Assembly (NCBI GenBank): GCA_016794805.1
Contig: JAEUJI010000033.1
Location: forward strand, 4,769 to 68,768
Direction: 5' to 3'
DNA: 64,000 nt
Source of the DNA: Gemmatimonadota bacterium
GTDB taxonomy: Bacteria; Gemmatimonadota; Gemmatimonadetes; Gemmatimonadales; GWC2-71-9
The notes beneath the pieces were generated by a model. That model searched no databases. It was not told the origin of the DNA and saw only the letters and a program-made list of their open reading frames with translations. Both the position numbers and the translations under genes were made by a program. Below are positions 2,209-54,800 of the stretch, in pieces (positions within the stretch are counted from its first letter, which is position 1; every line of letters starts with the position of its first letter).

Positions 2209-4167
2209 ATGACCGACCAGATCAGCACCCTGCTCTCCGAAACCCGGCGCTTTCCCCCGGACCCGGCCTTCGCCCGGGAGGCGAACGGCCAGGCGGCCCT
2301 CTACGATGCTGCCCGGACGGACCGGCTCGCCTTCTGGGAAGAGCAGGCCCGGGCGCTCGACTGGATCACCCCCTGGCACACGGTGCTGGAGTGGACCCCG
2401 CCCCACGCCCGGTGGTTCGTGGGCGGCAAGCTCAACATCGCGGCCAACTGCATCGACCGGCACCTGCACACCGCGCGGCGCAACAAGGCGGCGATCATCT
2501 GGGAGGGGGAGCCGGGGGACCGGCGCACCATCACGTACTGGGAGCTGCACCGCGAGGTGGGCCGCTGCGCCAACGCCCTGCGCAAGCTGGGCGTGCGGAA
2601 GGGGGATCGGGTCGCCATCTACCTCCCGATGATCCCCGAGGCCGCCATCGCGATGCTGGCCTGCGCCCGCATCGGCGCGGTCCATTCCGTGGTGTTCGGC
2701 GGATTCTCGGCTGAATCGCTGCGGGACCGGATCAACGACGCCCAGGCGGTCTGCCTCATCACCGCCGATGGCGGCTACCGCCGGGGCGCGGTGCTGCCGC
2801 TCAAGCGCTTCGCCGACGAGGCCGTGGCGGCCTGCCCCACCATCAAGGACGTCATCGTGGTGCAGCGCCGGCCCGGCGCGGCCGCGGGCGACGAGTCGTT
2901 CGCCAACATCGTCGAGGGCCGGGACCACTGGTGGCACCGGCTGCTGGACCAGGCCTCCCCCGATTGCCCGGCCGAACCGCTCGACGCGGAGGACCTGCTC
3001 TTCATCCTCTACACCTCGGGCACCACCGGGAAACCCAAGGGCATCGTGCACACTACCGGAGGCTACCTCACCCAGGTCACCTCCACCATGCGGCACGTCT
3101 TCGACCTCAAGGAAAGCGACCTCTTCTGGTGCACCGCGGACGTGGGGTGGGTCACGGGCCACTCCTACGTGGTGTACGGGCCGCTCGCCAACGGGGCGAC
3201 GGTGCTGATGTACGAAGGCGCCCCCGACTGGCCGGAGCGGGATCGCTTCTGGAAGATCATCGCCCGGTACGGCGTCACCATCTTCTATACCGCCCCGACC
3301 GCCATCCGCGCCTTCATGAAGTGGGGCGAGGCGCTCCCCGCGAAGCACGACCTCTCCACCCTCCGCCTGCTCGGCACCGTGGGCGAGCCGATCAATCCCG
3401 AGGCCTGGATCTGGTATCAGCAGCACATCGGCCAGGGCCGCTGCCCCATCGTGGACACCTGGTGGCAGACCGAGACCGGCGGGATCATGATCACCCCGCT
3501 CCCCGGCGTGGTCACCACCAAGCCCGGCTCCGCCACGATCCCCTTCCCGGGCATCTCCGCCCAGCTGGTGGACCAGAAGGGCGTTCCCCTCACGGTGGGC
3601 GGCGGCCTGCTGGTGCTGACCGAGCCCTGGCCGGGGATGCTCCGGACCATCTACGGTGATGACGAGCGCTATCGCCAGACCTACTGGTCCCGGTTCGGCG
3701 ACAAGTACTTCGCCGGCGACGGCGCCAAGCTGGACGAGGACGGCTACTGGTGGATCCTGGGCCGGGTGGACGATGTGCTGAACGTGGCCGGCCACCGCAT
3801 CGGCACCATGGAGGTTGAGAGCGCGCTGGTGGACCATCCGTCGGTGGCCGAGGCGGCGGTGGTGGGCAAGCACCACGACCTCAAGGGGCAGGCCCTCGCC
3901 GCCTTCGTGACCCTCAAGGAGGGGAACCGGGCCACCGCCGAGCTGAAGGACGACCTCAAGGATCACGTGGCGCGGAAGATCGGCGCCATCGCCCGGCCCG
4001 ACGACATCCTCTTTTCCGCCGACCTCCCCAAGACCCGGAGCGGGAAGATCATGCGCCGGCTGCTCAAGGACATCGCGGAAGGCCGCGCCCTGGGGGATAC
4101 CACGACCCTGGCGGACCCGTCGGTGGTGGCGCGGCTCAAGGACCAGTATGAGAGCGAGGAAGGGTAG
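2209..4167 (+). CDS. acs: acetyl-CoA synthetase (AMP-forming)
   Basis: [19 protein letters not shown] and [11 protein letters not shown] motifs. Full-length 652 aa after trimming the track ORF (2086) to ATG 2209 (MTDQISTLL). Confidence 0.95.
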
Positions 4168-34691: not shown

Positions 34692-35294
34692 TCAGCTCAC
34701 CGCGCGGGTCAGCCGGCTGGTGGAGAGCACCAGGATCGCGGCGCAGCCCACGGCCAGCACCCCGAGCGCGCTGAGCGCCGGGGTGGGCGGCAGCGCCCGG
34801 GCCACCAGCAGCGTGAGGGCGATCTCGCCCAGCGCCCGGCAGAAGGCGAGCGCCACCCCGGCGGCCACGCCGCGCCAGGCCAGCGGAAGCGTCACCGCCC
34901 AGAAGAGGCTCCACTCCGAGCGGCCCAATGTCCGCGCGGCCGCCTCGAGCCGGCGGTCCACCCGGGCAAATTCCCCCTGGGCGGAGCGCACGAACATCGC
35001 GAGCGCGCCCGCCCACGCGATGCCGATGGCCATCCTCCAGTCGAGGACCGGGGCGAGCCCCAGCCAGCCGAGGGCCGCCGCCATCCAGGGGTGGCCGGCG
35101 AAGCCCACCGCGCAGTAGCCGAGCAGGGTCGCTGGCAGGACCAAAGGGAGCAGCAGCACCGCCTGCAGCGGCGCCTTGCCCGGAAAGCTGTGCCGGCCCA
35201 GCAGCCAGGCCAGCGGCAGGCCGACCACGAATGCCAGCGCCGTGGCGATCCCGGCGAGGGAGAACAGGAACGCGGCGGGCTCAGTCACGGCCAA
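34692..35294 (-). CDS. modB: molybdate/sulfate-type ABC permease (second copy, short at 200 aa)
   Basis: EAA-loop-like AARTLGRSEWSLFWAVTLPLAWRG; 5 TM. Confidence 0.72.
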   Translation of the reverse strand: MAVTEPAAFLFSLAGIATALAFVVGLPLAWLLGRHSFPGKAPLQAVLLLPLVLPATLLGYCAVGFAGHPWMAAALGWLGLAPVLDWRMAIGIAWAGALAMFVRSAQGEFARVDRRLEAAARTLGRSEWSLFWAVTLPLAWRGVAAGVALAFCRALGEIALTLLVARALPPTPALSALGVLAVGCAAILVLSTSRLTRAVS

Positions 35295-35757
35295 TCATCA
35301 CCTCGGTGGATTTGATCACGGCAAGGACCTGGTCGCCAATCTTGAGCCGCAGTCGTTCCGCGGAACGACGCGTGATGATCGAGACCAGCTCCTGGCCGCC
35401 GATCTCGAGCCGCACTTCGCACATGAGTCCGTCGAGTGTGAGTCCCGCGATGCGGCCGCGCAGCTGGTTCCGGGCGCTCAGCTCCACGCCTCCCGCCGGC
35501 GCGGCGGCGCCCTTCGCCCCCAGCAGCGCCTCCACCCGGTCCCGCGGAAACAGCCATTTTCTCCCCACCCGCGTCGCCGGCAGCTTTCCTTCCCGCGCCA
35601 GCGCCTGGACCCGCTTCACGTTGAGGTGCAGCAACCGGGCAGTCTCGGCGACGGTCAGGAGTTCCAGGCGACCTTCCGGGTAATGGAGGCGGGGCCGGAT
35701 AAAGTGGGGGCTGCGACGGCCGGAGGGAAGGGGCGGGTGGGGGGAAGAGCGGATCAA
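35281..35757 (-). CDS. excisionase-type HTH plus TOBE (Mop) domain regulator
   Basis: LLTVAETARLLHLNVKRVQALAREGKLPATRVGRKWLF is an HTH_17-like segment. It is followed by SARNQLRGRIAGLTLDGLMCEVRLEIGGQELVSIITRRSAERLRLKIGDQVLAVIKSTEVMI (TOBE). The start is uncertain (TTG 35757). Confidence 0.7.
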   Translation of the reverse strand: MIRSSPHPPLPSGRRSPHFIRPRLHYPEGRLELLTVAETARLLHLNVKRVQALAREGKLPATRVGRKWLFPRDRVEALLGAKGAAAPAGGVELSARNQLRGRIAGLTLDGLMCEVRLEIGGQELVSIITRRSAERLRLKIGDQVLAVIKSTEVMIGRD

Positions 35758-35792: not shown

Positions 35793-36746
35793 CTAGAAAC
35801 GAACCTGCACCTGCGTCTGGAGCGCGCCCTTCCGGGCCCCGGGATCTCCGATCTTCCGGCTCACGTAGAACGCCGATAACCGGACCGTGGCCGGTACTAC
35901 GAACCAGTTGATCCCGCCGCTCACCGCCCGATTGGCCTGCTGCAGGCTGATCGCCTCTCGATCGAAGTCCTCATACTTGGCCACCAGCTGGACCGCGGGC
36001 GTCACCTTGTAGCCCCCGAGCGCGAACCACCCGCGATCGTTCTTCCCTCCAGCGCTGTCCCTGGCCCCGGCTACGACTTCGCCGCGCAGGACCAGCGCCT
36101 TGTGCTCGATCGAAATGTCCGCGCCGTAGCGGGTACTGTCGCCGAAGTACCGGGCGACATTGGCCCCGACCGTCACCTCTGGGATCGGCCGCACAGTCAC
36201 TCGCGCCACCCCCAGCACCGTCGAATCCCGGTTGGCGGTCACGTTCTGCCCTTCGCCGTTGAAGACGCCCGCCACCAGGAGGAGATGCTTGCCCGCCTGG
36301 TAATCGGCCTGCATGCCGATGTCCCGCTTCGGCGCGATTGAGTCCACTACCGTGGACCGGTCCAGTGTCTCGATATCCGCGATGGAAGCGATGTACTCGC
36401 GGGTGAACGGCGTCTTCATCTGGCCCACCTGGATGCCCAGCGCGTGGCGGGACCAGCGGATGTAGGCATCCGTCAGCGATACCGACGCCCGCCCAGTTCC
36501 CACGTTTCCGGTGCGGAACTCCGCCTGCAACCGGTAGGAGAAGTTGGTGGCGATGGCGCCGGTGGCCTGCAGCCGGGCCCGGTTGAGGGTGGCGGTGAGC
36601 CCGAGGTCCTTCTGGTAGGCCAGGCGGGCCTGCATGTAGCCGCCGAGTTTCACCGGGGTCGAAGTGGCCACCGGCGCGGACTGCTGGGCAAGCACGGCGG
36701 GCGGGGCGAAGCCCATGAACAGGGAGAGTACGACCGAACGGCGCAT
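35793..36746 (-). CDS. outer-membrane porin (phosphate-selective porin O/P-like)
   Basis: Signal peptide MRRSVVLSLFMGFAPPAVLAQQ, beta-strand periodicity, and C-terminal ...QTQVQVRF. Trimmed to ATG 36746. Confidence 0.7.
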   Translation of the reverse strand: MRRSVVLSLFMGFAPPAVLAQQSAPVATSTPVKLGGYMQARLAYQKDLGLTATLNRARLQATGAIATNFSYRLQAEFRTGNVGTGRASVSLTDAYIRWSRHALGIQVGQMKTPFTREYIASIADIETLDRSTVVDSIAPKRDIGMQADYQAGKHLLLVAGVFNGEGQNVTANRDSTVLGVARVTVRPIPEVTVGANVARYFGDSTRYGADISIEHKALVLRGEVVAGARDSAGGKNDRGWFALGGYKVTPAVQLVAKYEDFDREAISLQQANRAVSGGINWFVVPATVRLSAFYVSRKIGDPGARKGALQTQVQVRF

Positions 36747-36786
36747 TCCGGGTTCCTGGTTCAGGTGAATGGGAAGCGGAATCGCC

Positions 36787-37860
36787 TCAGGCGTACGCAG
36801 CCACGCTCGTGGCCTTGAAGGAGGCGTAGACCCGCTGGCCTGCCGTGAGCCCCATGGCGTGGGACGCCTGGGCCGTGACCTCCGCAACGAACGACGGCGC
36901 GGGACCCAGCACCACCCGGACCCGCTCCCCGTGCGGTGGCTCGGGCAGGATTTCCTCCACCACGCCAGGAAAGACGTTCCGGGCGCTCGCGCTCGGCGGT
37001 TCCCGCGACAACGTCACCTGGTCGGGACTCACCACCAGGAACAGCTCCTCCCCCGCCTCGGCGGCGAGCAGCGTCACCAGGCCGCGCGGCGTCTCGAGCG
37101 CCACCTCGTCCCCCGGACCGCGATGGCGCACCCGCCCGGGGAGCAGGTTGAGCCCCAGCAGCGTGGCCACATAGCGGGTGCGCGGCCGGCGCAGCAGCGC
37201 GGGCGCATCGCCGGTCTGCGCCACCCGCCCCCGCTCCAGCACCGCGATCCGGTCGCCGAACAGCATCGCCTCCATCGGGGCATGGGTGACGAAGACCGTG
37301 ACGCAGGGCAGTTCGCGCAGGGTGCGGCGGAGCTCGGTCCGCACCGCGTGCCGGGTCTCCAGGTCGAGCGCGGACAGCGGCTCGTCGAGCAGCAGCAGAG
37401 CCGGCTCCAGCACCAGCGCCCGGGCCAGCGCCACCCGCTGCTGCTGGCCCCCGGAGAGCTGGCTCGGCCGGCGCTCCGCCAGCGCCGTCAGCCCCAGCCG
37501 CTCGAGCATCGCCGCCGCCATCCCGCGCGATGTCCGCCGGCCGTGCCCCGACGCCACCAGCCCGAACCCGACGTTGTCCAGCACCGAGAGGTGGGGGAAC
37601 AGCGCGTAGTCCTGCGACAGGTACCCGACCGCCCGCCGCTGGGGCGACCACCACTGACGGGTCCCGGTGTCGCACCAGGTGGCCCCGTCGCACTCGATGC
37701 GCCCCGCATCGGGCCGGAGCAGTCCCGCCAGCAGCCGCAGGACGGTCGTCTTTCCCGAGCCGCTCTCTCCCACGAGCACGAGGGTGCTGCCGGGGGCCGC
37801 CTCGAGCTCGCACTCGAGGCGGAACTCACCCAGCGCGTGGCGGAGCGAAGCGCGGAGCAC
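36787..37860 (-). CDS. modC: molybdate ABC transporter ATP-binding protein
   Basis: GESGSGKT, LSGGQQQRVALARAL and LLLLDEPLSALD motifs, plus a TOBE-like C-terminus. GTG 37860 is the assumed start. Confidence 0.8.
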   Translation of the reverse strand: MLRASLRHALGEFRLECELEAAPGSTLVLVGESGSGKTTVLRLLAGLLRPDAGRIECDGATWCDTGTRQWWSPQRRAVGYLSQDYALFPHLSVLDNVGFGLVASGHGRRTSRGMAAAMLERLGLTALAERRPSQLSGGQQQRVALARALVLEPALLLLDEPLSALDLETRHAVRTELRRTLRELPCVTVFVTHAPMEAMLFGDRIAVLERGRVAQTGDAPALLRRPRTRYVATLLGLNLLPGRVRHRGPGDEVALETPRGLVTLLAAEAGEELFLVVSPDQVTLSREPPSASARNVFPGVVEEILPEPPHGERVRVVLGPAPSFVAEVTAQASHAMGLTAGQRVYASFKATSVAAYA

Positions 37861-38674
37861 GGGGAGGCGCGAAGAGGCCCAGGCCCGCCTGCCGCATCCC
37901 GGCGAGGAGGACGGCGGCCATGACGATGAGCAGCAGCGAGAGCGTGGCGGCGGCTTCGAGGTCCTCATGCAGGAGCAGGTAGACATCCAGGGGAACGGTA
38001 CGGGTGACGCCCGCGAGATTGCCGGCAAAGGTGATCGTGGCGCCGAACTCCCCGAGCGCCCGCGCCCACGCCATGCCCAGCCCCGCGACCAGGCTGGGCA
38101 GGGCCAGCGGCAGCCGGACCCGCCAGAAGGTGTGCATCTCCCCGGCCCGCAGCGTCGCCGCCGCGTCGAGGTAGCGCGGATCCACCGCGGAAAATCCCGC
38201 CCGGGCCGCCCCGACGAAGAAGGGGACCGCCATGAAGACCTGAGCCAGGACCACGCCGGCCGTCGTGAACGGCAGGGAGATCCCGAAAGCCGTCAGGGTC
38301 CCGCCCAGCAGTCCCGCCCGGCCGAACGCCATCAGCAGCGCGAACCCCGCCACCGTCGGCGGGATCACCATCGGCAGGTCCATCAGGATTTCCAGCACCC
38401 GCTTGCCCGGGAAGGCGCGGGTCGCGAGGAGGTGCGCCATGGGGAGCCCGATCACCACCGAGACCAGCGCAGCCGCCACGCTGGTCGTCAGGCTCAGCCG
38501 AAGCGCCTCCTGCACGCTCGGATTGCCGAGCTGCGCCAGCAGCGTCCCCGGCGGCACCCGCAGGACCAGAGCCACGACCGGAAGCGCCACCAGGGCTGCG
38601 ACCAGCGCCGCGAGCCCCAGCATCAGCGCCCGTCCGAGCGGCTCCCTCCAGCGTGGCGAGGACGCGGCGATCAT
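37826..38674 (-). CDS. modB: molybdate ABC transporter permease
   Basis: LPMVIPPTVAGFALL and DAAATLRAGEMHTFWRVRLPLA (EAA loop). Confidence 0.85.
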   Translation of the reverse strand: MIAASSPRWREPLGRALMLGLAALVAALVALPVVALVLRVPPGTLLAQLGNPSVQEALRLSLTTSVAAALVSVVIGLPMAHLLATRAFPGKRVLEILMDLPMVIPPTVAGFALLMAFGRAGLLGGTLTAFGISLPFTTAGVVLAQVFMAVPFFVGAARAGFSAVDPRYLDAAATLRAGEMHTFWRVRLPLALPSLVAGLGMAWARALGEFGATITFAGNLAGVTRTVPLDVYLLLHEDLEAAATLSLLLIVMAAVLLAGMRQAGLGLFAPPRAPRFAPPRAG

Positions 38675-39480
38675 CGGCGGGGCGCCGGCGGCAGGAACCC
38701 CCGCGTTGCCAGCAACGCCTGCCCCTCCGGACCGAGCACCAGGGCGATGAATGCCCCGGCCAGCTCCCGGTGGCCGCCTGCCACCACGGCGATGGGATAC
38801 TCGGCGATCGGATTGTAGGGATCGGGGATCTCGAGGATGGTGAGTGCGTCCCGGTCGCGCGCCCCGACATCGGTCGCGTAGGCGATACCGGCGTCCGCCT
38901 CGCGGAGCCGGACCTTGGCCACCACCGCCCGCACATTCTCCTCCTCGGAGACCAGGTTCGCGAGCACCTGACGATCGAAGGCCGCCGGGAACCCCGGAGC
39001 ACCATTCAGTCGGCGCAGTGATTCACGGCTGTACCCGCCAGCGGGAACCTGGGCACCAGCCAGCACCAGCTTGAGGCCAGGCCGGGTCAGATCCTGCAGC
39101 TTCTCGACGTAGCCGGGGTTGGCCCGGGGGATCACGACCACGAGCCGGTTGCGGGCAAAGGTCGCCGCATCGCCGGCGAGCAACCTCCGGTCTCGGGCGT
39201 ACTGCATCCAGCGCTGGTCCGCGGTGGCGAGCACGTCGGCTCTCGCGCCCTGTTCCAGCTGCGTGGCCAGCACCTGGCTTCCGGAATAGTTGAGCCGCAC
39301 CGTCACGCCGGGATGGGCCCGCTCGAACGCACGACCGAGATCGTTGAAGGCCTCGGTCAGCGACGCGGCGGCAAAGACGGAAAGGACCTGCTGGCCAGCG
39401 AGCGGGAGGGCGGGAAGCAATGCGCCCGCGAGCAGCACCACTCCGAATTGGAGGTGGGCGCGTTGGGGGGTCAATGGCAT
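38671..39480 (-). CDS. modA: molybdate-binding periplasmic protein
   Basis: Signal peptide. LSVFAAASLTEAFNDLGRAFE...YSGSQVLATQLEQGARADVLATAD is a ModA pattern. ATGA-type overlap with modB. Confidence 0.85.
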   Translation of the reverse strand: MPLTPQRAHLQFGVVLLAGALLPALPLAGQQVLSVFAAASLTEAFNDLGRAFERAHPGVTVRLNYSGSQVLATQLEQGARADVLATADQRWMQYARDRRLLAGDAATFARNRLVVVIPRANPGYVEKLQDLTRPGLKLVLAGAQVPAGGYSRESLRRLNGAPGFPAAFDRQVLANLVSEEENVRAVVAKVRLREADAGIAYATDVGARDRDALTILEIPDPYNPIAEYPIAVVAGGHRELAGAFIALVLGPEGQALLATRGFLPPAPRR

Positions 39481-39494
39481 CCTTTGAGCCTAGA

Positions 39495-39545
39495 ATTAAG
39501 GACTTAAAGGATATACAAGGTTATTTAAGGAAACTCAAGGAAGCC
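39495..39545 (-). promoter_or_regulatory. five phased CCTT decamers in an AT-rich promoter region of modA
   Basis: The minus strand reads TTCCTTGAGT TTCCTTAAAT AACCTTGTAT ATCCTTTAAG TCCTTAATTC. On the plus strand AAGG falls at 39498, 39507, 39517, 39527 and 39537. An embedded TTGAGT-N17-TATATC is present. Confidence 0.6.
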
Positions 39546-39572
39546 TATGAGCCCACCAACCGCGGCACCCGG

Positions 39573-40022
39573 TCAGGCGACCAGGGTGTTCACCAGCTCC
39601 ACGAAAATGGCGGTGTCGATCGGCTTGTGCAGCACACCCCGGGCTCCCAGCTCGATGGCCTCGTCCTGGATGGACGGAGAGCTATCCCCGGTCACCACCA
39701 CCACCGGGATGCTGGCGGTCACGTGGTTGTGGCGCAGTTGCCGGAGGAGCTGCAGTCCTCCCCCTGCGGGCATGTGCCAGTCGACCAGGATGAACTTGGG
39801 CTGCAGCCGCTGCGCCACCATGAATCCCTGCACGGCGTCGTAGGCCGAGACCGTCGCGAGCCCGCGGCTCGCCAGCACGGCCCCGATCAGCCGCGTCATC
39901 TCGGCATCATCATCCACCACGAGCACCGTGGCGCCGATGGCCCGCTGGGGGCCGGTGCCTGCCAGCTCGTACTTGAGCCCGGCGGAGGGCCGTTTCCGCT
40001 CGTCCATTCGTTGCACCCTCAC
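39573..40022 (-). CDS. single-domain response regulator (CheY-like)
   Basis: VLVVDDDAEM...FILVDWHMPAGGG...PVVVVTG...VLHKPID. The start may be ATG 40007. Confidence 0.85.
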   Translation of the reverse strand: MRVQRMDERKRPSAGLKYELAGTGPQRAIGATVLVVDDDAEMTRLIGAVLASRGLATVSAYDAVQGFMVAQRLQPKFILVDWHMPAGGGLQLLRQLRHNHVTASIPVVVVTGDSSPSIQDEAIELGARGVLHKPIDTAIFVELVNTLVA

Positions 40023-40508
40023 CCCTTTTGAGATCCGAACAAAGTATCGTCCGGCGAGTCAGGCCGCTTTAGTAACCCACCGGCTCTCAACGCGGATCGC
40101 CTGTCGAGTGACCGAAAATCGGGCATTTCCGCGAGTTCAGGTTCGGGGAGCAGGCCCCCGCTTCAACTCCTTGGGCCCCATGGCGCTCGCTCAAAGGCGA
40201 GGGAGTCAACCCCCGAAGACCCTTTCCGGCCGGTCCTCGAGGGGGGCTGGACAGAGTGTGGGCCGGAAGCCAGACTGGCCATGCGGCTCCCGACACGTCG
40301 GGGCCGTGTTTGCATCCTCCGACCAACCGGAGGGTTCGATCTCGCGACTGACAGCACCCTTGGGTCGCGACCCCTATCTGCGGGGGGGGCGAGGTGTACT
40401 TGGGGAGCCGGTAGGATCGCCACCGCGGTCCTAGTCGAGGGGGGGAGAGCCCCACCGGCTCGAGCGGACACCAGACCGAGTCCCGCATCACGTCGAAAAG
40501 AGGAGTTT

Positions 40509-41741
40509 GTGAAAGTCCTGGTGTTGGGCTGTGGCGCGGTGGGGACCGTGTCCGCCCTGAAGTTCGCGCAGGAGCCCTCCTGCGAGCAGCTCGTCGTGGC
40601 CGACGCGGTGCCGGGCCGGGCCCAGCAACTGGCCGACCGGATCGGGCGGCCGCACGTCCTGGCCCTGACGCTCAACGCGGGTGACCGTCACGCGGTGGCT
40701 CGTGCCCTCCGAGAGACCCAGAGCACCATCCTGCTCAATGCCGCGCTGCCGGCCACGAACCTGGTCGTCATGCGCGCCTGCCTGGACGCCGGCGCCGATT
40801 ACATCGACATGGCCTCGGGGGGAGCCGAGAACGACGGTACCCCGAAGCTGCCGGACCAGTTTGCCCTCGACGCCGAGTTCCGGGCCGCGGGCCGCCTGGC
40901 GCTCCTCGGGATGGGCGCCGACCCCGGCACCAGCAATGTGTACGCGGCCTACGCGGCCAAGCACCTCCTGGACGAGGTGACCGAGCTTCGCATCCGCGAC
41001 GGCGACACCTCGGTCTGCGCCGGCCACGATGGGTTCCTGGCGACATTTTCGCCCTGGGTGTTCATCGACGAGTGCACCTGCGGCGCCGTGTCGTGGCGCG
41101 ATGGCGCCTACCACCTCGAGGAGGCGCTGACCGGCTACGAGCCGTTCAACTTCCCCGAGCTGGGCGTCCTGAACACCTATTACGTGGACCACGAGGAGGC
41201 GCGTACCCTGCCGATGTTCTTCCCCGGCATTCGGGTGGCGGACTTCAAGCTCTGCCTGGACGAGACCACCTGGGCCACGCTCAAGGTGCTCAAGGACCTG
41301 GGGCTCAACCGGAAGGACAAGGTGCGCGTGGGAGATGTCGAGGTCTCTCCGCGGGACCTCGTGGTCTCGCTGCTGCCGGAGCCGCGCGACCTGGCCGGAC
41401 GGATGCACGGCAAGACCTGCGTCGGCACCCTGGCCCGCGGCATCCGCGACGGGCAGGAGCGGGCCTATTACATCTACAACGTGACCAGCCAGGAGCATTC
41501 CTACCGGGAGCTGGGGGTGCAGGCCACGGCCTACCAGACCGGGATTCCGCCGGTCATCGCCGCGCGCCTCATCGCCTCCGGTGAATGGACCGGCACCGGC
41601 GTGCTGTCGCCGGAGCAGCTCGATCCCGATCCCTTCATGCGGCTGCTGGACGAGAGCGGCATGCCCTGGCACATCCGGGACGAGGAGACCGGCATCCTGG
41701 ATCCGGAGTACATCTGGATCGAGGAGCCGCTGGCGGCGTAA
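40509..41741 (+). CDS. saccharopine dehydrogenase family NAD(P)-binding protein
   Basis: GTG 40509 preceded by AAGAGGAG. Rossmann motif KVLVLGCGAVG, with N- and C-terminal Sacchrp_dh-like regions. The track ORF from 40281 is an upstream artefact. Confidence 0.8.
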   Translation: MKVLVLGCGAVGTVSALKFAQEPSCEQLVVADAVPGRAQQLADRIGRPHVLALTLNAGDRHAVARALRETQSTILLNAALPATNLVVMRACLDAGADYIDMASGGAENDGTPKLPDQFALDAEFRAAGRLALLGMGADPGTSNVYAAYAAKHLLDEVTELRIRDGDTSVCAGHDGFLATFSPWVFIDECTCGAVSWRDGAYHLEEALTGYEPFNFPELGVLNTYYVDHEEARTLPMFFPGIRVADFKLCLDETTWATLKVLKDLGLNRKDKVRVGDVEVSPRDLVVSLLPEPRDLAGRMHGKTCVGTLARGIRDGQERAYYIYNVTSQEHSYRELGVQATAYQTGIPPVIAARLIASGEWTGTGVLSPEQLDPDPFMRLLDESGMPWHIRDEETGILDPEYIWIEEPLAA

Positions 41742-41751
41742 CCAGGGAACA

Positions 41752-41814
41752 GCGGGGAAACGGAGAAGCGGGGAAACGGAGGTTCGCCGTTTCTCCGCTT
41801 CTCCGTTTCTCCGG
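41752..41814. terminator. 28-bp hairpin made of 16-nt tandem repeats (bidirectional terminator, GAAACGG family)
   Basis: GCGGGGAAACGGAGAA GCGGGGAAACGG - AGGTTCG - CCGTTTCTCCGCTTCTCCGTTTCTCCGG. It lies between convergent stops at 41741 and 41825. Confidence 0.8.
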
Positions 41815-41824
41815 GTCACCTCGA

Positions 41825-42637
41825 CTAGAACGCGGCGCTCACCCCCACCGCCCCCGGCTCCAGCAGGAATCTCGGCGCCGAGATCCCGAACACCCGCCAG
41901 CGCCCGTTCATCAGCTTGACGCTGGTGATCCCGACCAAGGCGCCGGCCAGGACGTCACTCCCCCAGTGCCGGTTGTCGTTGAGGCGGGACCAGCTGGTGA
42001 GGCCGGCGGCCCCGTAGAGCAGGACCGTCGCGGGAGTGGAGTGCAGCTCGTCGCCGACGCCCGTCGCGAGCGCGAAGGCCATGGCGGTGTGCCCCGAGGG
42101 CCAGGAGTCCCGGTTCGAGAAGGGGGTGAACTCGAAGGCGTCCCCGGTTTCCGCAGGCCGCCGCCGCCCCACGAGCGGCTTGAGCAGGTTGGTGACGACC
42201 GCGGCCGTCAGCAGCCCCGCGGTCATCCGCCCGCCGGCCCGGGTCACCCGGTCATCTCCCAGGATCACTCCGGCGGCGATGGTCCCCAGCGCGGGCACGG
42301 CGTACACGGTGGGCTCGCCCATCCGCTTGAACACCCGGGCGACGTCGTCCTTCCCCTCGCTGCGGTGGGCCTGGAGTTCCTCCCGCAGCGACTCATCGCT
42401 CAGGGAGACGAGCGCGACCGCACCCATGGCGCCGAGCCCGTGGTACCAGCGCACGGCGGCCGGAGCCCCGGCGCGGGTCGGGACGAGTGCCGGCCTCGCG
42501 AACACCGGCGCAGGACCGGACCCGAGGTCCCAGCGCGGCAGGGGGGCGGGGCGGACCTGGCCCGCCAGTCCGCCGCCCAGCAGCACGACCAGGGCGAACA
42601 GGGTGGCCGACGGACGCGGGCTCAAGTTGCGCGGCAT
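41825..42637 (-). CDS. PAP2-family phosphatase
   Basis: KPLVGRRRP, WPSGHT and SRLNDNRHWGSD form the tripartite PAP2 motif. Confidence 0.85.
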   Translation of the reverse strand: MPRNLSPRPSATLFALVVLLGGGLAGQVRPAPLPRWDLGSGPAPVFARPALVPTRAGAPAAVRWYHGLGAMGAVALVSLSDESLREELQAHRSEGKDDVARVFKRMGEPTVYAVPALGTIAAGVILGDDRVTRAGGRMTAGLLTAAVVTNLLKPLVGRRRPAETGDAFEFTPFSNRDSWPSGHTAMAFALATGVGDELHSTPATVLLYGAAGLTSWSRLNDNRHWGSDVLAGALVGITSVKLMNGRWRVFGISAPRFLLEPGAVGVSAAF

Positions 42638-54374: not shown

Positions 54375-54671
54375 ATGCCCCCCCTCACGCCCACGGCTAC
54401 CGGCGTCCGGCTGACGCTGCATGTCCAGCCGCGCGCCGCCCGCACCGAGATCGCGGGCCGGCATGGGGATGCGCTCAAGGTCCGGCTCGCCGCACCGCCG
54501 GTGGAGGGCGCGGCCAACGACGCGCTGATCCGGTTCCTGGCCGATCGCCTGGGGGTGCCCCGGTCGGCCGTCCAGCTGGTCGGGGGCGCGACCAGCCGGC
54601 GGAAGGTGGTGGAGGTGACCGGAATCTCGGCCGAGTCCGCTGCGGCCCGCCTCCCAGTTGGCGGAACCTGA
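54375..54671 (+). CDS. DUF167 (YggU-like) protein
   Basis: VRLTLHVQPRAARTEIAGRHGDALKVRLAAPPVEGAANDALIRFLA. Confidence 0.8.
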   Translation: MPPLTPTATGVRLTLHVQPRAARTEIAGRHGDALKVRLAAPPVEGAANDALIRFLADRLGVPRSAVQLVGGATSRRKVVEVTGISAESAAARLPVGGT

Positions 54672-54710
54672 CCGCCCCGCTACATTGTTCCTGCAGCGGT
54701 TCAATTGCTC

Positions 54711-54757
54711 CGTGGTGATTTGCGCCTATTGCAGCCACGTTAAACAAATGCTAAAAC
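54711..54757 (+). ncRNA. candidate H-type pseudoknot leader (SAM-II/SAM-V-like?) upstream of metH
   Basis: P1 CGTGG/CCACG (54711-15 / 54735-39). Loop ATTTG (54718-22) can pair with tail CAAAT (54745-49). The tail ends GCTAAAAC. A downstream hairpin CCCCG...CGGGG (54765-54793) covers the GGGGA Shine-Dalgarno and is followed by ATTTTT. Confidence 0.3.
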
Positions 54758-54800
54758 GGCCGCCCCCCGGGGAGCCGTCACGGCCACACGGGGATTTTTC

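Follow-up and report, generated by a model that had tools for sequence, protein, structure and literature searches.

A conserved array of helically phased direct repeats upstream of modA in Gemmatimonadota, a candidate operator for a HTH_17-TOBE regulator

The molybdate transport genes modABC of a Gemmatimonadota bacterium are preceded by five direct repeats of ten nucleotides (nt) that share a CCTT core and follow each other at about one turn of the DNA helix. The array lies at 39493..39542 on the minus strand of a 64,000 nt stretch of contig JAEUJI010000033.1 (referred to as the window), between a receiver gene and modA. Its phasing is conserved upstream of modA in related loci, and the comparative evidence indicates that it is a real, conserved cis-regulatory element. 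The array is predicted to be the operator of a regulator encoded in the same gene cluster, which combines a helix-turn-helix (HTH) domain of the HTH_17 family with a TOBE domain. We consider it probable that this protein forms a molybdate-dependent repressor array, arranged head-to-tail on duplex DNA over the core promoter of modA. To our knowledge, molybdate control of modABC is textbook material only for ModE and its palindromic operator, and we know of almost no experimental data on gene regulation in Gemmatimonadota.

Results

Five phased decamers precede modA

The spacer between the receiver gene (39573..40022) and modA (38671..39480), both of which lie on the minus strand as the initial annotation had placed them, comprises the 92 nt from 39481 to 39572. 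Read in the direction of modA, it consists of ...GGC, repeat 1 TTCCTTGAGT (39542-39533), repeat 2 TTCCTTAAAT (39532-39523), repeat 3 AACCTTGTAT (39522-39513), repeat 4 ATCCTTTAAG (39512-39503), repeat 5 TCCTTAATTC (39502-39493) and TAGGCTCAAAGG, followed by the ATG. The CCTT cores start at 39540, 39530, 39520, 39510 and 39501, which corresponds to steps of 10, 10, 10 and 9 nt; 17 nt separate the end of the last core, and 12 nt the end of the last decamer, from the start codon (39480). Decamers, steps and distance agree with the initial annotation. Its estimate of roughly 40% GC for the spacer was too low, as the actual value is 46.7% (36.9% for a 65 nt core of the spacer), compared with 71.0% for the window. 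Positions 39479-39538 are the most AT-rich 60 nt in the 64 kb (31.7% GC; runner-up 43%).

Chance as the origin of the array is excluded. The pattern CCTT-N6-CCTT-N6-CCTT-N6-CCTT had a single match in the window (both strands, at most one mismatch) and none in 100 dinucleotide shuffles. When chains of any 4-mer with steps of 9-11 nt were counted in 20,000 mononucleotide shuffles each of the 92 nt spacer and its 70 nt core, no five-member chain was obtained, and four-member chains appeared in 5 and 2 shuffles, respectively. The second-densest AAGG cluster of the window (four copies in 45 nt, 41283-41330, plus strand) lies within the open reading frame (ORF) of a saccharopine dehydrogenase and is probably merely coding sequence.

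The 10 nt phasing is conserved across modA loci

A genome scan with ModA identified Gemmatimonadota metagenome-assembled genomes as the closest relatives, and their mod clusters occur in two arrangements. In group 1 (window, L001-L003, L006, L012, L017, L100-L108 and L110) the order is receiver, spacer, modABC, (porin), HTH_17-TOBE, and in group 2 (L004, L005, L007-L009, L109 and L111) it is receiver, HTH_17-TOBE, spacer, modABC, porin. Phasing was measured without reference to a motif, by summing, for every lag, the 3-mer or 4-mer self-matches in the 80 nt preceding modA, with dinucleotide shuffles as controls. The sole peak was obtained at lag 10 (z = +11.2 with 3-mers and +10.5 with 4-mers; 14 loci, window's clade left out), all remaining lags staying below about |z| = 3. 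It was present in group 1 alone (z = +9.2 and +10.9, respectively) as well as in group 2 alone (z = +6.0 and +5.5), while upstream of 73 modA loci from other lineages without an adjacent HTH-TOBE gene no lag-10 signal was detected (z = -1.3). The initial annotation had staked its proposal on the repeats recurring upstream of modA orthologues, and the phasing is indeed kept there.

Ten independent group-1 lineages were then aligned gap-free on a shared TATATC. Pyrimidine tetrads were found in columns 4-7, 14-17, 24-27 and 34-37, with a weaker fifth around column 44, and the consensus reads cCCTTG...t.C.cTAa.taaCccTaTATATCC.T. The conserved columns are C/T tetrads and not A-tracts, and the A/T spacers between them are variable. 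These columns bear on the idea of a protein-independent, AT-rich promoter that is bent or easily melted and whose periodicity merely reflects DNA shape. The array does occupy the most AT-rich spot of the window, and its phasing sets similar base steps on one helix face, but A-tracts are not what has been conserved, no such pattern is present at the S-adenosylmethionine (SAM) riboswitch promoter of the window described below, and modA promoters of other lineages lack the lag-10 signal. We regard an explanation by DNA shape as improbable, and the intrinsic curvature considered in the initial annotation does not account for the array on its own.

The strand that carries the motif differs between the two groups. 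The modA sense strand carries the pyrimidine cores (CCTT, CTCT, CCCT) in group 1. In group 2 the core motif is on the other strand, and the sense strand shows TAAGG, TAGGG, TGAGG or TAGAG every 10-11 nt, in an array that extends from a conserved TATCTT to the start codon. Since a reader of single-stranded RNA could not take both CCUU and AAGG in the mRNA, the switch points to a reader of duplex DNA. The case for a DNA-binding protein rests mainly on this switch and on the period of one helical turn, which is relevant to DNA but not to RNA.

The same switch speaks against the proposal that the array is a CsrA/RsmA decoy or target, with the plus-strand A(A)GGA motifs acting as a sponge RNA antisense to the modA leader. 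Five AAGG/AAGGA motifs are indeed present on the plus strand, and AAGGAUG at the start codon resembles a CsrA site. However, lineages differ in whether the motif is on the mRNA strand or on the opposite one, a strict 10 nt spacing is not a CsrA feature, no Rfam family was matched even at E up to 10, and a promoter and terminator scan of 39300-40300 called no site on either strand. A tblastn search for CsrA gave only noise, a result that covers the window and the fetched loci and says nothing about the genome as a whole. The decoy suggested in the initial annotation has next to nothing left in its favor.

A position weight matrix (PWM) derived from the first loci describes the unit as TTAAGGATAT on the purine strand, with the core T-A-R-G-G. 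In the 64 kb window and 19 loci, chains of at least three sites 9-11 nt apart were found solely just upstream of modA. The unchanged PWM detected chains upstream of modA in five later loci (L100, L101, L104, L106 and L109) and none elsewhere in 63 kb. A metagenome scan with a ModA alignment, which returned mostly distant lineages with at most 57% identity, served as negative control, and 276 kb of more distant lineages contained two chains, of which one immediately precedes an HTH_TOBE-modA operon. By these scans, the array is restricted to the mod clusters of the Gemmatimonadota lineage.

Related elements were seen in other lineages with HTH_TOBE-modA operons, at L027:about 100-150 and, upstream of HTH_TOBE, in L020 and L021. 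One of the related elements (ATATATCCCC...GGAGATATATGG) is an inverted repeat at the start codon, and another comprises CCTAAG / CTTGTG / CCTTTAAGG, 10-11 nt apart, over a TTGTGC-N16-TATTAT promoter.

A predicted modA promoter is embedded in the array

A -35-like hexamer TTGAGT (39533..39538, minus strand) overlaps repeat 1, and a -10-like hexamer TATATC (39510..39515, minus strand) overlaps repeats 3 and 4. The position of the TTG is conserved and TATATCC is invariant in group 1, where TTGnnn-N17-TATATC was found in 13 of 13 loci (with N18 in L017), the pyrimidine cores keeping a constant register to it. The TTGAGT-N17-TATATC promoter proposed in the initial annotation (39538-39510) thereby gained comparative support. 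Transcription would start at ~39503, about 7 nt after TATATC. The scan of 39300-40300 did not call this promoter because its -10 hexamer lacks the canonical final T of sigma-70 promoters, and the promoter is therefore argued from conservation instead. A SAM_alpha (SAM-II) riboswitch was detected at 54702-54775 on the plus strand (47 bits against a gathering threshold of 36). Its upstream TTGGCG-N17-TACATT promoter (region 54657-54775) shows no array-like pattern and indicates that the organism uses sigma-70-like promoters.

In five loci (L003, L100, L101, L105 and L106) the receiver gene is followed by an intrinsic terminator, consisting of a GC hairpin of -15 to -23 kcal/mol and T5-7, which ends ~ten bases before the promoter TTG. 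With a terminator directly before the TTG, modA needs its own promoter in these loci and there is no room for another one. An alternative -10 element upstream of the fold-back hairpin's 5' arm described below was looked for by eye and rejected, as just poor TAnnTA elements without a credible -35 were seen. Taking the predicted start site, the array would cover the -35 element (repeat 1), the promoter spacer (repeats 2 and 3), the 3' edge of the -10 element (repeat 4) and the transcription start site (TSS; repeat 5), which is a classic geometry for occlusion.

Ahead of their AGG array, at about -80 to -40 relative to the modA start, the group-2 loci L004, L005, L007, L008, L009 and L109 share cTTCCCT-N16-TATCTT (or TATATT). 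This could be either a promoter with an odd -35 element or two more pyrimidine-core sites two helical turns apart. The spacer before the regulator gene of the window contains TTCCCT ... TTTATCC, which is reminiscent of the group-2 element.

The cluster-encoded HTH_17-TOBE protein is the candidate binder

The predicted binder of the array, a protein with a HTH_17 domain and a single Mop-like TOBE domain that is proposed to sense molybdate, is encoded at 35281..35757 on the minus strand. The ORF comprises 158 amino acids, and judged by its homologues (mostly about 110-160, typically ~130 amino acids) translation probably begins near 35679. The protein matched HTH_17 (PF12728, 50 bits) and TOBE (PF03459, 72 bits) in Pfam, as well as TIGR01764 'excise' (excisionase family DNA-binding) and TIGR00638 Mop in NCBIfam. 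A PBP_like domain (PF12727) was not found with Pfam; the C-terminal domain is TOBE.

An AlphaFold2 model of the regulator had a mean pLDDT (predicted local distance difference test) of 81, with confident predictions for both domains and a linker that was not confident. When the model was compared with the PDB by Foldseek, the C-terminal half matched Mop, ModG and ModE, and the TOBE domain aligned full-length with MopII, ModG, the E. limosum tungstate-binding protein and ModE, SARN and KST motifs included. Over the HTH half, the best PDB match and closest solved structure was BldC in the smeA-ssfA direct-repeat complex (6ama; TM-score 0.80-0.83 normalised to BldC, root-mean-square deviation 1.0-2.4 Å, 34-37% identity). 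A phmmer search of the PDB sequences with the HTH segment alone yielded two matches, Pukovnik Xis (4j2n, E 0.027) as the best and BldC 6ama.

BldC is a transcription regulator whose multimers occupy two to four direct repeats cooperatively and head-to-tail, all on one face of the DNA (PMC5859096). Filaments of Xis proteins assemble on tandem sites, and D29 Gp36 uses direct repeats to repress downstream genes (PMC12266134). Both features of such operators were found at modA, namely at least two repeats of the same orientation at about one helical turn and a cognate winged helix of the excisionase/BldC type (HTH_17, TIGR01764, 6ama, 4j2n). The HTH-TOBE protein, which the initial annotation had named as a possible reader of the direct repeats, is thus a credible one.

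The recognition region LNVKRVQALAR-GKLPA-RVGRKWLF is nearly invariant in groups 1 and 2, as would be expected if all regulators read the same core. Owing to this invariance, a comparison of recognition-helix variation with core variation (CCTT, CTCT, CCCT) gave no information. The HTH_17-TOBE family comprises 2,913 clusters (E up to 1e-10), and its members, where named in the sources, are called 'TOBE domain-containing', 'molybdopterin-binding' or 'molybdate transport system regulatory protein'. A literature search of the searchable library found no study of HTH_17-TOBE DNA sites.

A different protein might occupy the array, either a DNA-binding partner of the receiver or the ModE-N-like HTH_1 protein of some relatives. 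Direct repeats are known targets of OmpR/PhoB-type response regulators (PMC5859096). The receiver gene heads the cluster in every array-bearing Gemmatimonadota locus, and an HTH_1 gene is found upstream in L012 and one further contig. Yet the receiver has no output domain, the HTH_1 gene is missing from the window's cluster and from most loci, and the canonical ModE operator, an inverted TATAT-N7-TAYAT, is not present, the spacer containing a single TATAT without an inverted partner. Canonical ModE control was rejected also because the domain architecture of the regulator is wrong for it. Binding by another protein is accordingly judged rather unlikely, and the cluster-encoded HTH_17-TOBE protein is, by analogy with BldC and Xis, most likely the binder.

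A fold-back hairpin is predicted over the modA start

The sequence around the modA start (CUCAAAGGAUG) is complementary to repeats 1 and 4. In the predicted hairpin (minus strand), the 5' arm UAUCCUUU belongs to repeat 4 (39506..39513) and begins right after the TAT of TATATCC, and the 3' arm AAAGGAUG (39478..39485) ends at the modA start codon, which it includes (39480-39478). A longer alternative 5' arm, GGCUUCCUUGAG in repeat 1 (39534..39545), is complementary to CUCAAAGGAUGCC (39488-39476). RNA beginning at the predicted start site 39503 was unstructured in folding predictions (-5.2 kcal/mol, z = +0.15). If it began at 39516, a hairpin buried AAAGGAUG (-11.9 kcal/mol, z = -2.6), and from 39545 onwards GGCUUCCUUGAG paired with CUCAAAGGAUGCC (-17.2 kcal/mol, z = -2.4). 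Because the 5' arms are upstream of the predicted start site and the window showed no terminator between receiver gene and array, the hairpin would form in read-through transcripts only.

Comparable arms are found in other loci, such as AUCCUUGGA / UCCAAGGAU in L001, AUCCUUGGGAGCC / GGCCUCCAAGGAU in L104 and CCUUCUG / CAGAAGG in L006. L017 has 13 pairs, two of which are G.U, and the group-2 loci L005, L008, L009 and L004 form stems of 11-20 bp. The folding z was below -2 in eight loci. With RNAalifold on six close sequences, six of the seven core pairs never varied and MAFFT misplaced bulges, so that formal covariation is weak. For this reason, the pairing of 5' arms with the 3' arms of their own and of other lineages was compared. 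Own pairs were more stable in a permutation test of 14 lineages (mean of -15.7 vs -11.8 kcal/mol, p = 1.5e-4), and this was also obtained with 18 lineages (-14.2 vs -11.6 kcal/mol, p = 6e-4). In most group-2 loci the sense strand folded markedly better than the antisense strand (L009: -21.3 vs -8.0 kcal/mol), which would fit G.U pairs in the sense of the mRNA. The hairpin is absent in L003, L100, L101, L106, L107, L108 and L110, and it is weak or absent in each of the five loci where the receiver gene ends in an intrinsic terminator. This anticorrelation is weak, as L107, L108 and L110 have neither terminator nor hairpin and the terminator loci may be one clade.

These data also allow the repeats to be read as serving RNA, that is, as UCCUU anti-start-site elements in the modA leader that alternately pair with CUCAAAGGAUG in a translational attenuator or fold-back, with a phasing that no protein reads. 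The start-burying hairpins of repeats 4 and 1, the lineage-specific complementarity of the arms, the better folding of the sense strand in group 2 and the terminator loci with weak or no hairpin all support such a function. However, a 10 nt period is meaningless for RNA pairing, the repeat motif swaps strand between the groups while the polarity of the hairpin stays the same, and the invariant core pairs yield no covariation signal. Moreover, copies 1-4 lie upstream of the predicted start site, with no room for another promoter in the five terminator loci, and about a third of the lineages lack the hairpin and still carry phased cores (L003, L108, L110 and L107). We hold it unlikely that the array exists for RNA pairing. 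The UCCUU-AAGGA pairing put forward in the initial annotation stands for repeats 4 and 1 and is confined to read-through RNA. As an additional layer next to the repressor, a promoter-embedded fold-back that insulates modA from upstream transcription has, in our estimate, close to an even chance.

Davis, Simons and Kleckner reportedly described in 1985 that translation of the IS10 transposase is inhibited by a fold-back when the transcript reads through from outside. Like IS10, modA has a segment upstream of the predicted start site that is complementary to the ribosome-binding site and start codon, and only transcripts started externally would form the hairpin. In contrast to IS10, the hairpin is predicted for a chromosomal transporter operon behind regulator genes, its 5' arm also serves as part of the proposed operator and of the -10 region, and the start site is a predicted one.

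The mod cluster and further features of the window

A cluster of receiver, modABC, porin and HTH_17-TOBE genes is conserved across the Gemmatimonadota loci, and the HTH_17-TOBE gene is always part of it. In the window, modA (38671..39480, minus strand) encodes the substrate-binding protein of the molybdate ATP-binding cassette (ABC) transporter (TIGR01256, 124 bits) and is the proposed target of regulation. It is followed by modB (37826-38674), by modC with a TOBE domain (36787-about 37900) and by a porin gene of the Porin_O_P family (35793..36887, minus strand). The receiver-only response regulator directly upstream of the array (39573..40022), a possible source of read-through, retains its phospho-acceptor residues and has no output domain. 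As a conserved member of the mod cluster it is not the orphan it had been taken for in the initial annotation. Further upstream, a divergent saccharopine dehydrogenase gene and a PAP2 gene are often kept as well (window 39573-42637; loci L100-L111).

The extra HTH_1 (ModE N-terminal-like) gene in L012 (about 3500-3900) and one further contig is located between the receiver gene and HTH_17-TOBE/modA, and two different Mo-type regulators may coexist in these clusters. In group-1 loci the regulator gene is followed and overlapped by a second, modB-like ABC permease gene (e.g. L001:8258-8695; below 35281 in the window), which may be part of another oxyanion transporter under the same control.

For riboswitches and other known RNAs, including the molybdenum cofactor (Moco) riboswitch, Rfam gave no match to the spacer at the gathering threshold, and relaxing the search to E up to 10 over 39380-39680 added nothing but noise. 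Elsewhere in the window, a cyclic di-GMP-I riboswitch was detected at 1811-1903 on the minus strand (46.6 bits), with an island of 45% GC just upstream (1969-2028).

Discussion

In the mechanism that we propose, the array would be read as duplex DNA, in units of ~10 bp with the core Y-C-Y-T (A-R-G-G on the other strand). Molybdate or tungstate would bind the TOBE domains of the HTH_17-TOBE protein, and protomers would line up head-to-tail on four to five phased sites on one helix face, in analogy to BldC and Xis. By analogy with ModE and Mop, oxyanion at the TOBE-TOBE interfaces may promote the oligomer, and the oligomer would occlude the promoter from -35 to about +10, so that modABC would be repressed in molybdate-replete cells; the direction of regulation is taken from ModE. 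In a second layer, read-through RNA from the receiver gene would fold and bury the start codon, and the fold-back hairpin would thus tie translation of modA to modA's own regulated promoter.

The array is a variation on ModE-type control and BldC/Xis-type binding rather than a new category. ModE of E. coli modABC follows the same logic on the same target, as a TOBE/Mop protein senses molybdate and the operator overlaps the modA promoter. It has, however, a LysR-like HTH and two Mop domains and binds a palindromic operator as a dimer, whereas the protein described here combines HTH_17 with one TOBE domain and would face an array of direct repeats. The DNA-binding side resembles BldC of Streptomyces (operators whiI and smeA-sffA), likewise a small MerR-like/excisionase-like winged helix on direct repeats at promoters. 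BldC lacks a sensor domain, while here the winged helix is fused to a Mop-like TOBE domain. Similarly, the Xis proteins of mycobacteriophages (Pukovnik Gp37, 4j2n; L5/D29 Gp36) and the Xis filaments of lambda have an excisionase-type winged HTH that binds tandem repeats cooperatively, but the phage proteins are recombination directionality factors without ligand sensing, and their repeats differ in sequence and spacing. According to the account of Rajeev et al. 2019 given in PMC11980592, the TaoR family (HTH_17 and a periplasmic-binding-protein-like domain) comprises regulators of tungsten/molybdenum transport and tungstoenzymes. As far as that account goes, TaoR shares with the regulator studied here an excisionase-related HTH_17 domain and the tie to Mo/W transporter genes, and differs in its sensor, which is periplasmic-binding-protein-like instead of TOBE.

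Several observations weigh against a repressor array of the proposed kind. The BldC unit is AATTxxxx(C) at ~9 bp, whereas the repeats upstream of modA are ~10 bp long with a CCTT/AAGG core and an A/T-rich spacer; the BldC consensus unit is not present in the array, so an operator-like function is proposed with a different site. The BldC family model NF033787 matched the regulator weakly (17.7 bits vs a cut-off of 77). Five of the ten new loci missed the PWM chain threshold, indicating that the array is degenerate in some lineages, and nine HTH_TOBE-modA operons of other lineages gave no aggregate lag-10 signal. The -10 hexamer of modA lacks the usual final T, and the conservation of repeats 1 and 4 can partly be explained by the -35 element and the hairpin. 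Mop proteins are hexamers that hold oxyanions between their subunits, and it is not obvious how a Mop-type hexamer would present HTH domains along one DNA face.

Taken one step further, the HTH_17-TOBE proteins could be an uncharacterised class of molybdate sensors, in which a BldC/Xis-like winged helix and a single Mop domain build a metal-triggered nucleoprotein filament head-to-tail on three to five phased 10 bp repeats, made cooperative by oxyanion-bridged TOBE contacts, over a modA promoter of which the same DNA encodes a fold-back hairpin that silences translation of transcripts not started there. This combination is offered tentatively, as a possibility that we would not yet call probable.

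For the generically annotated HTH_17-TOBE family, the conserved phased direct-repeat array is, as a candidate operator, a concrete and testable target. It also provides a defined cis-element for the prediction of Mo regulons in Gemmatimonadota. If the proposed binding is true, the head-to-tail mode of BldC and Xis would be extended to a ligand-sensing regulator, and the fold-back hairpin, if true, would represent insulation from upstream transcription outside mobile elements.

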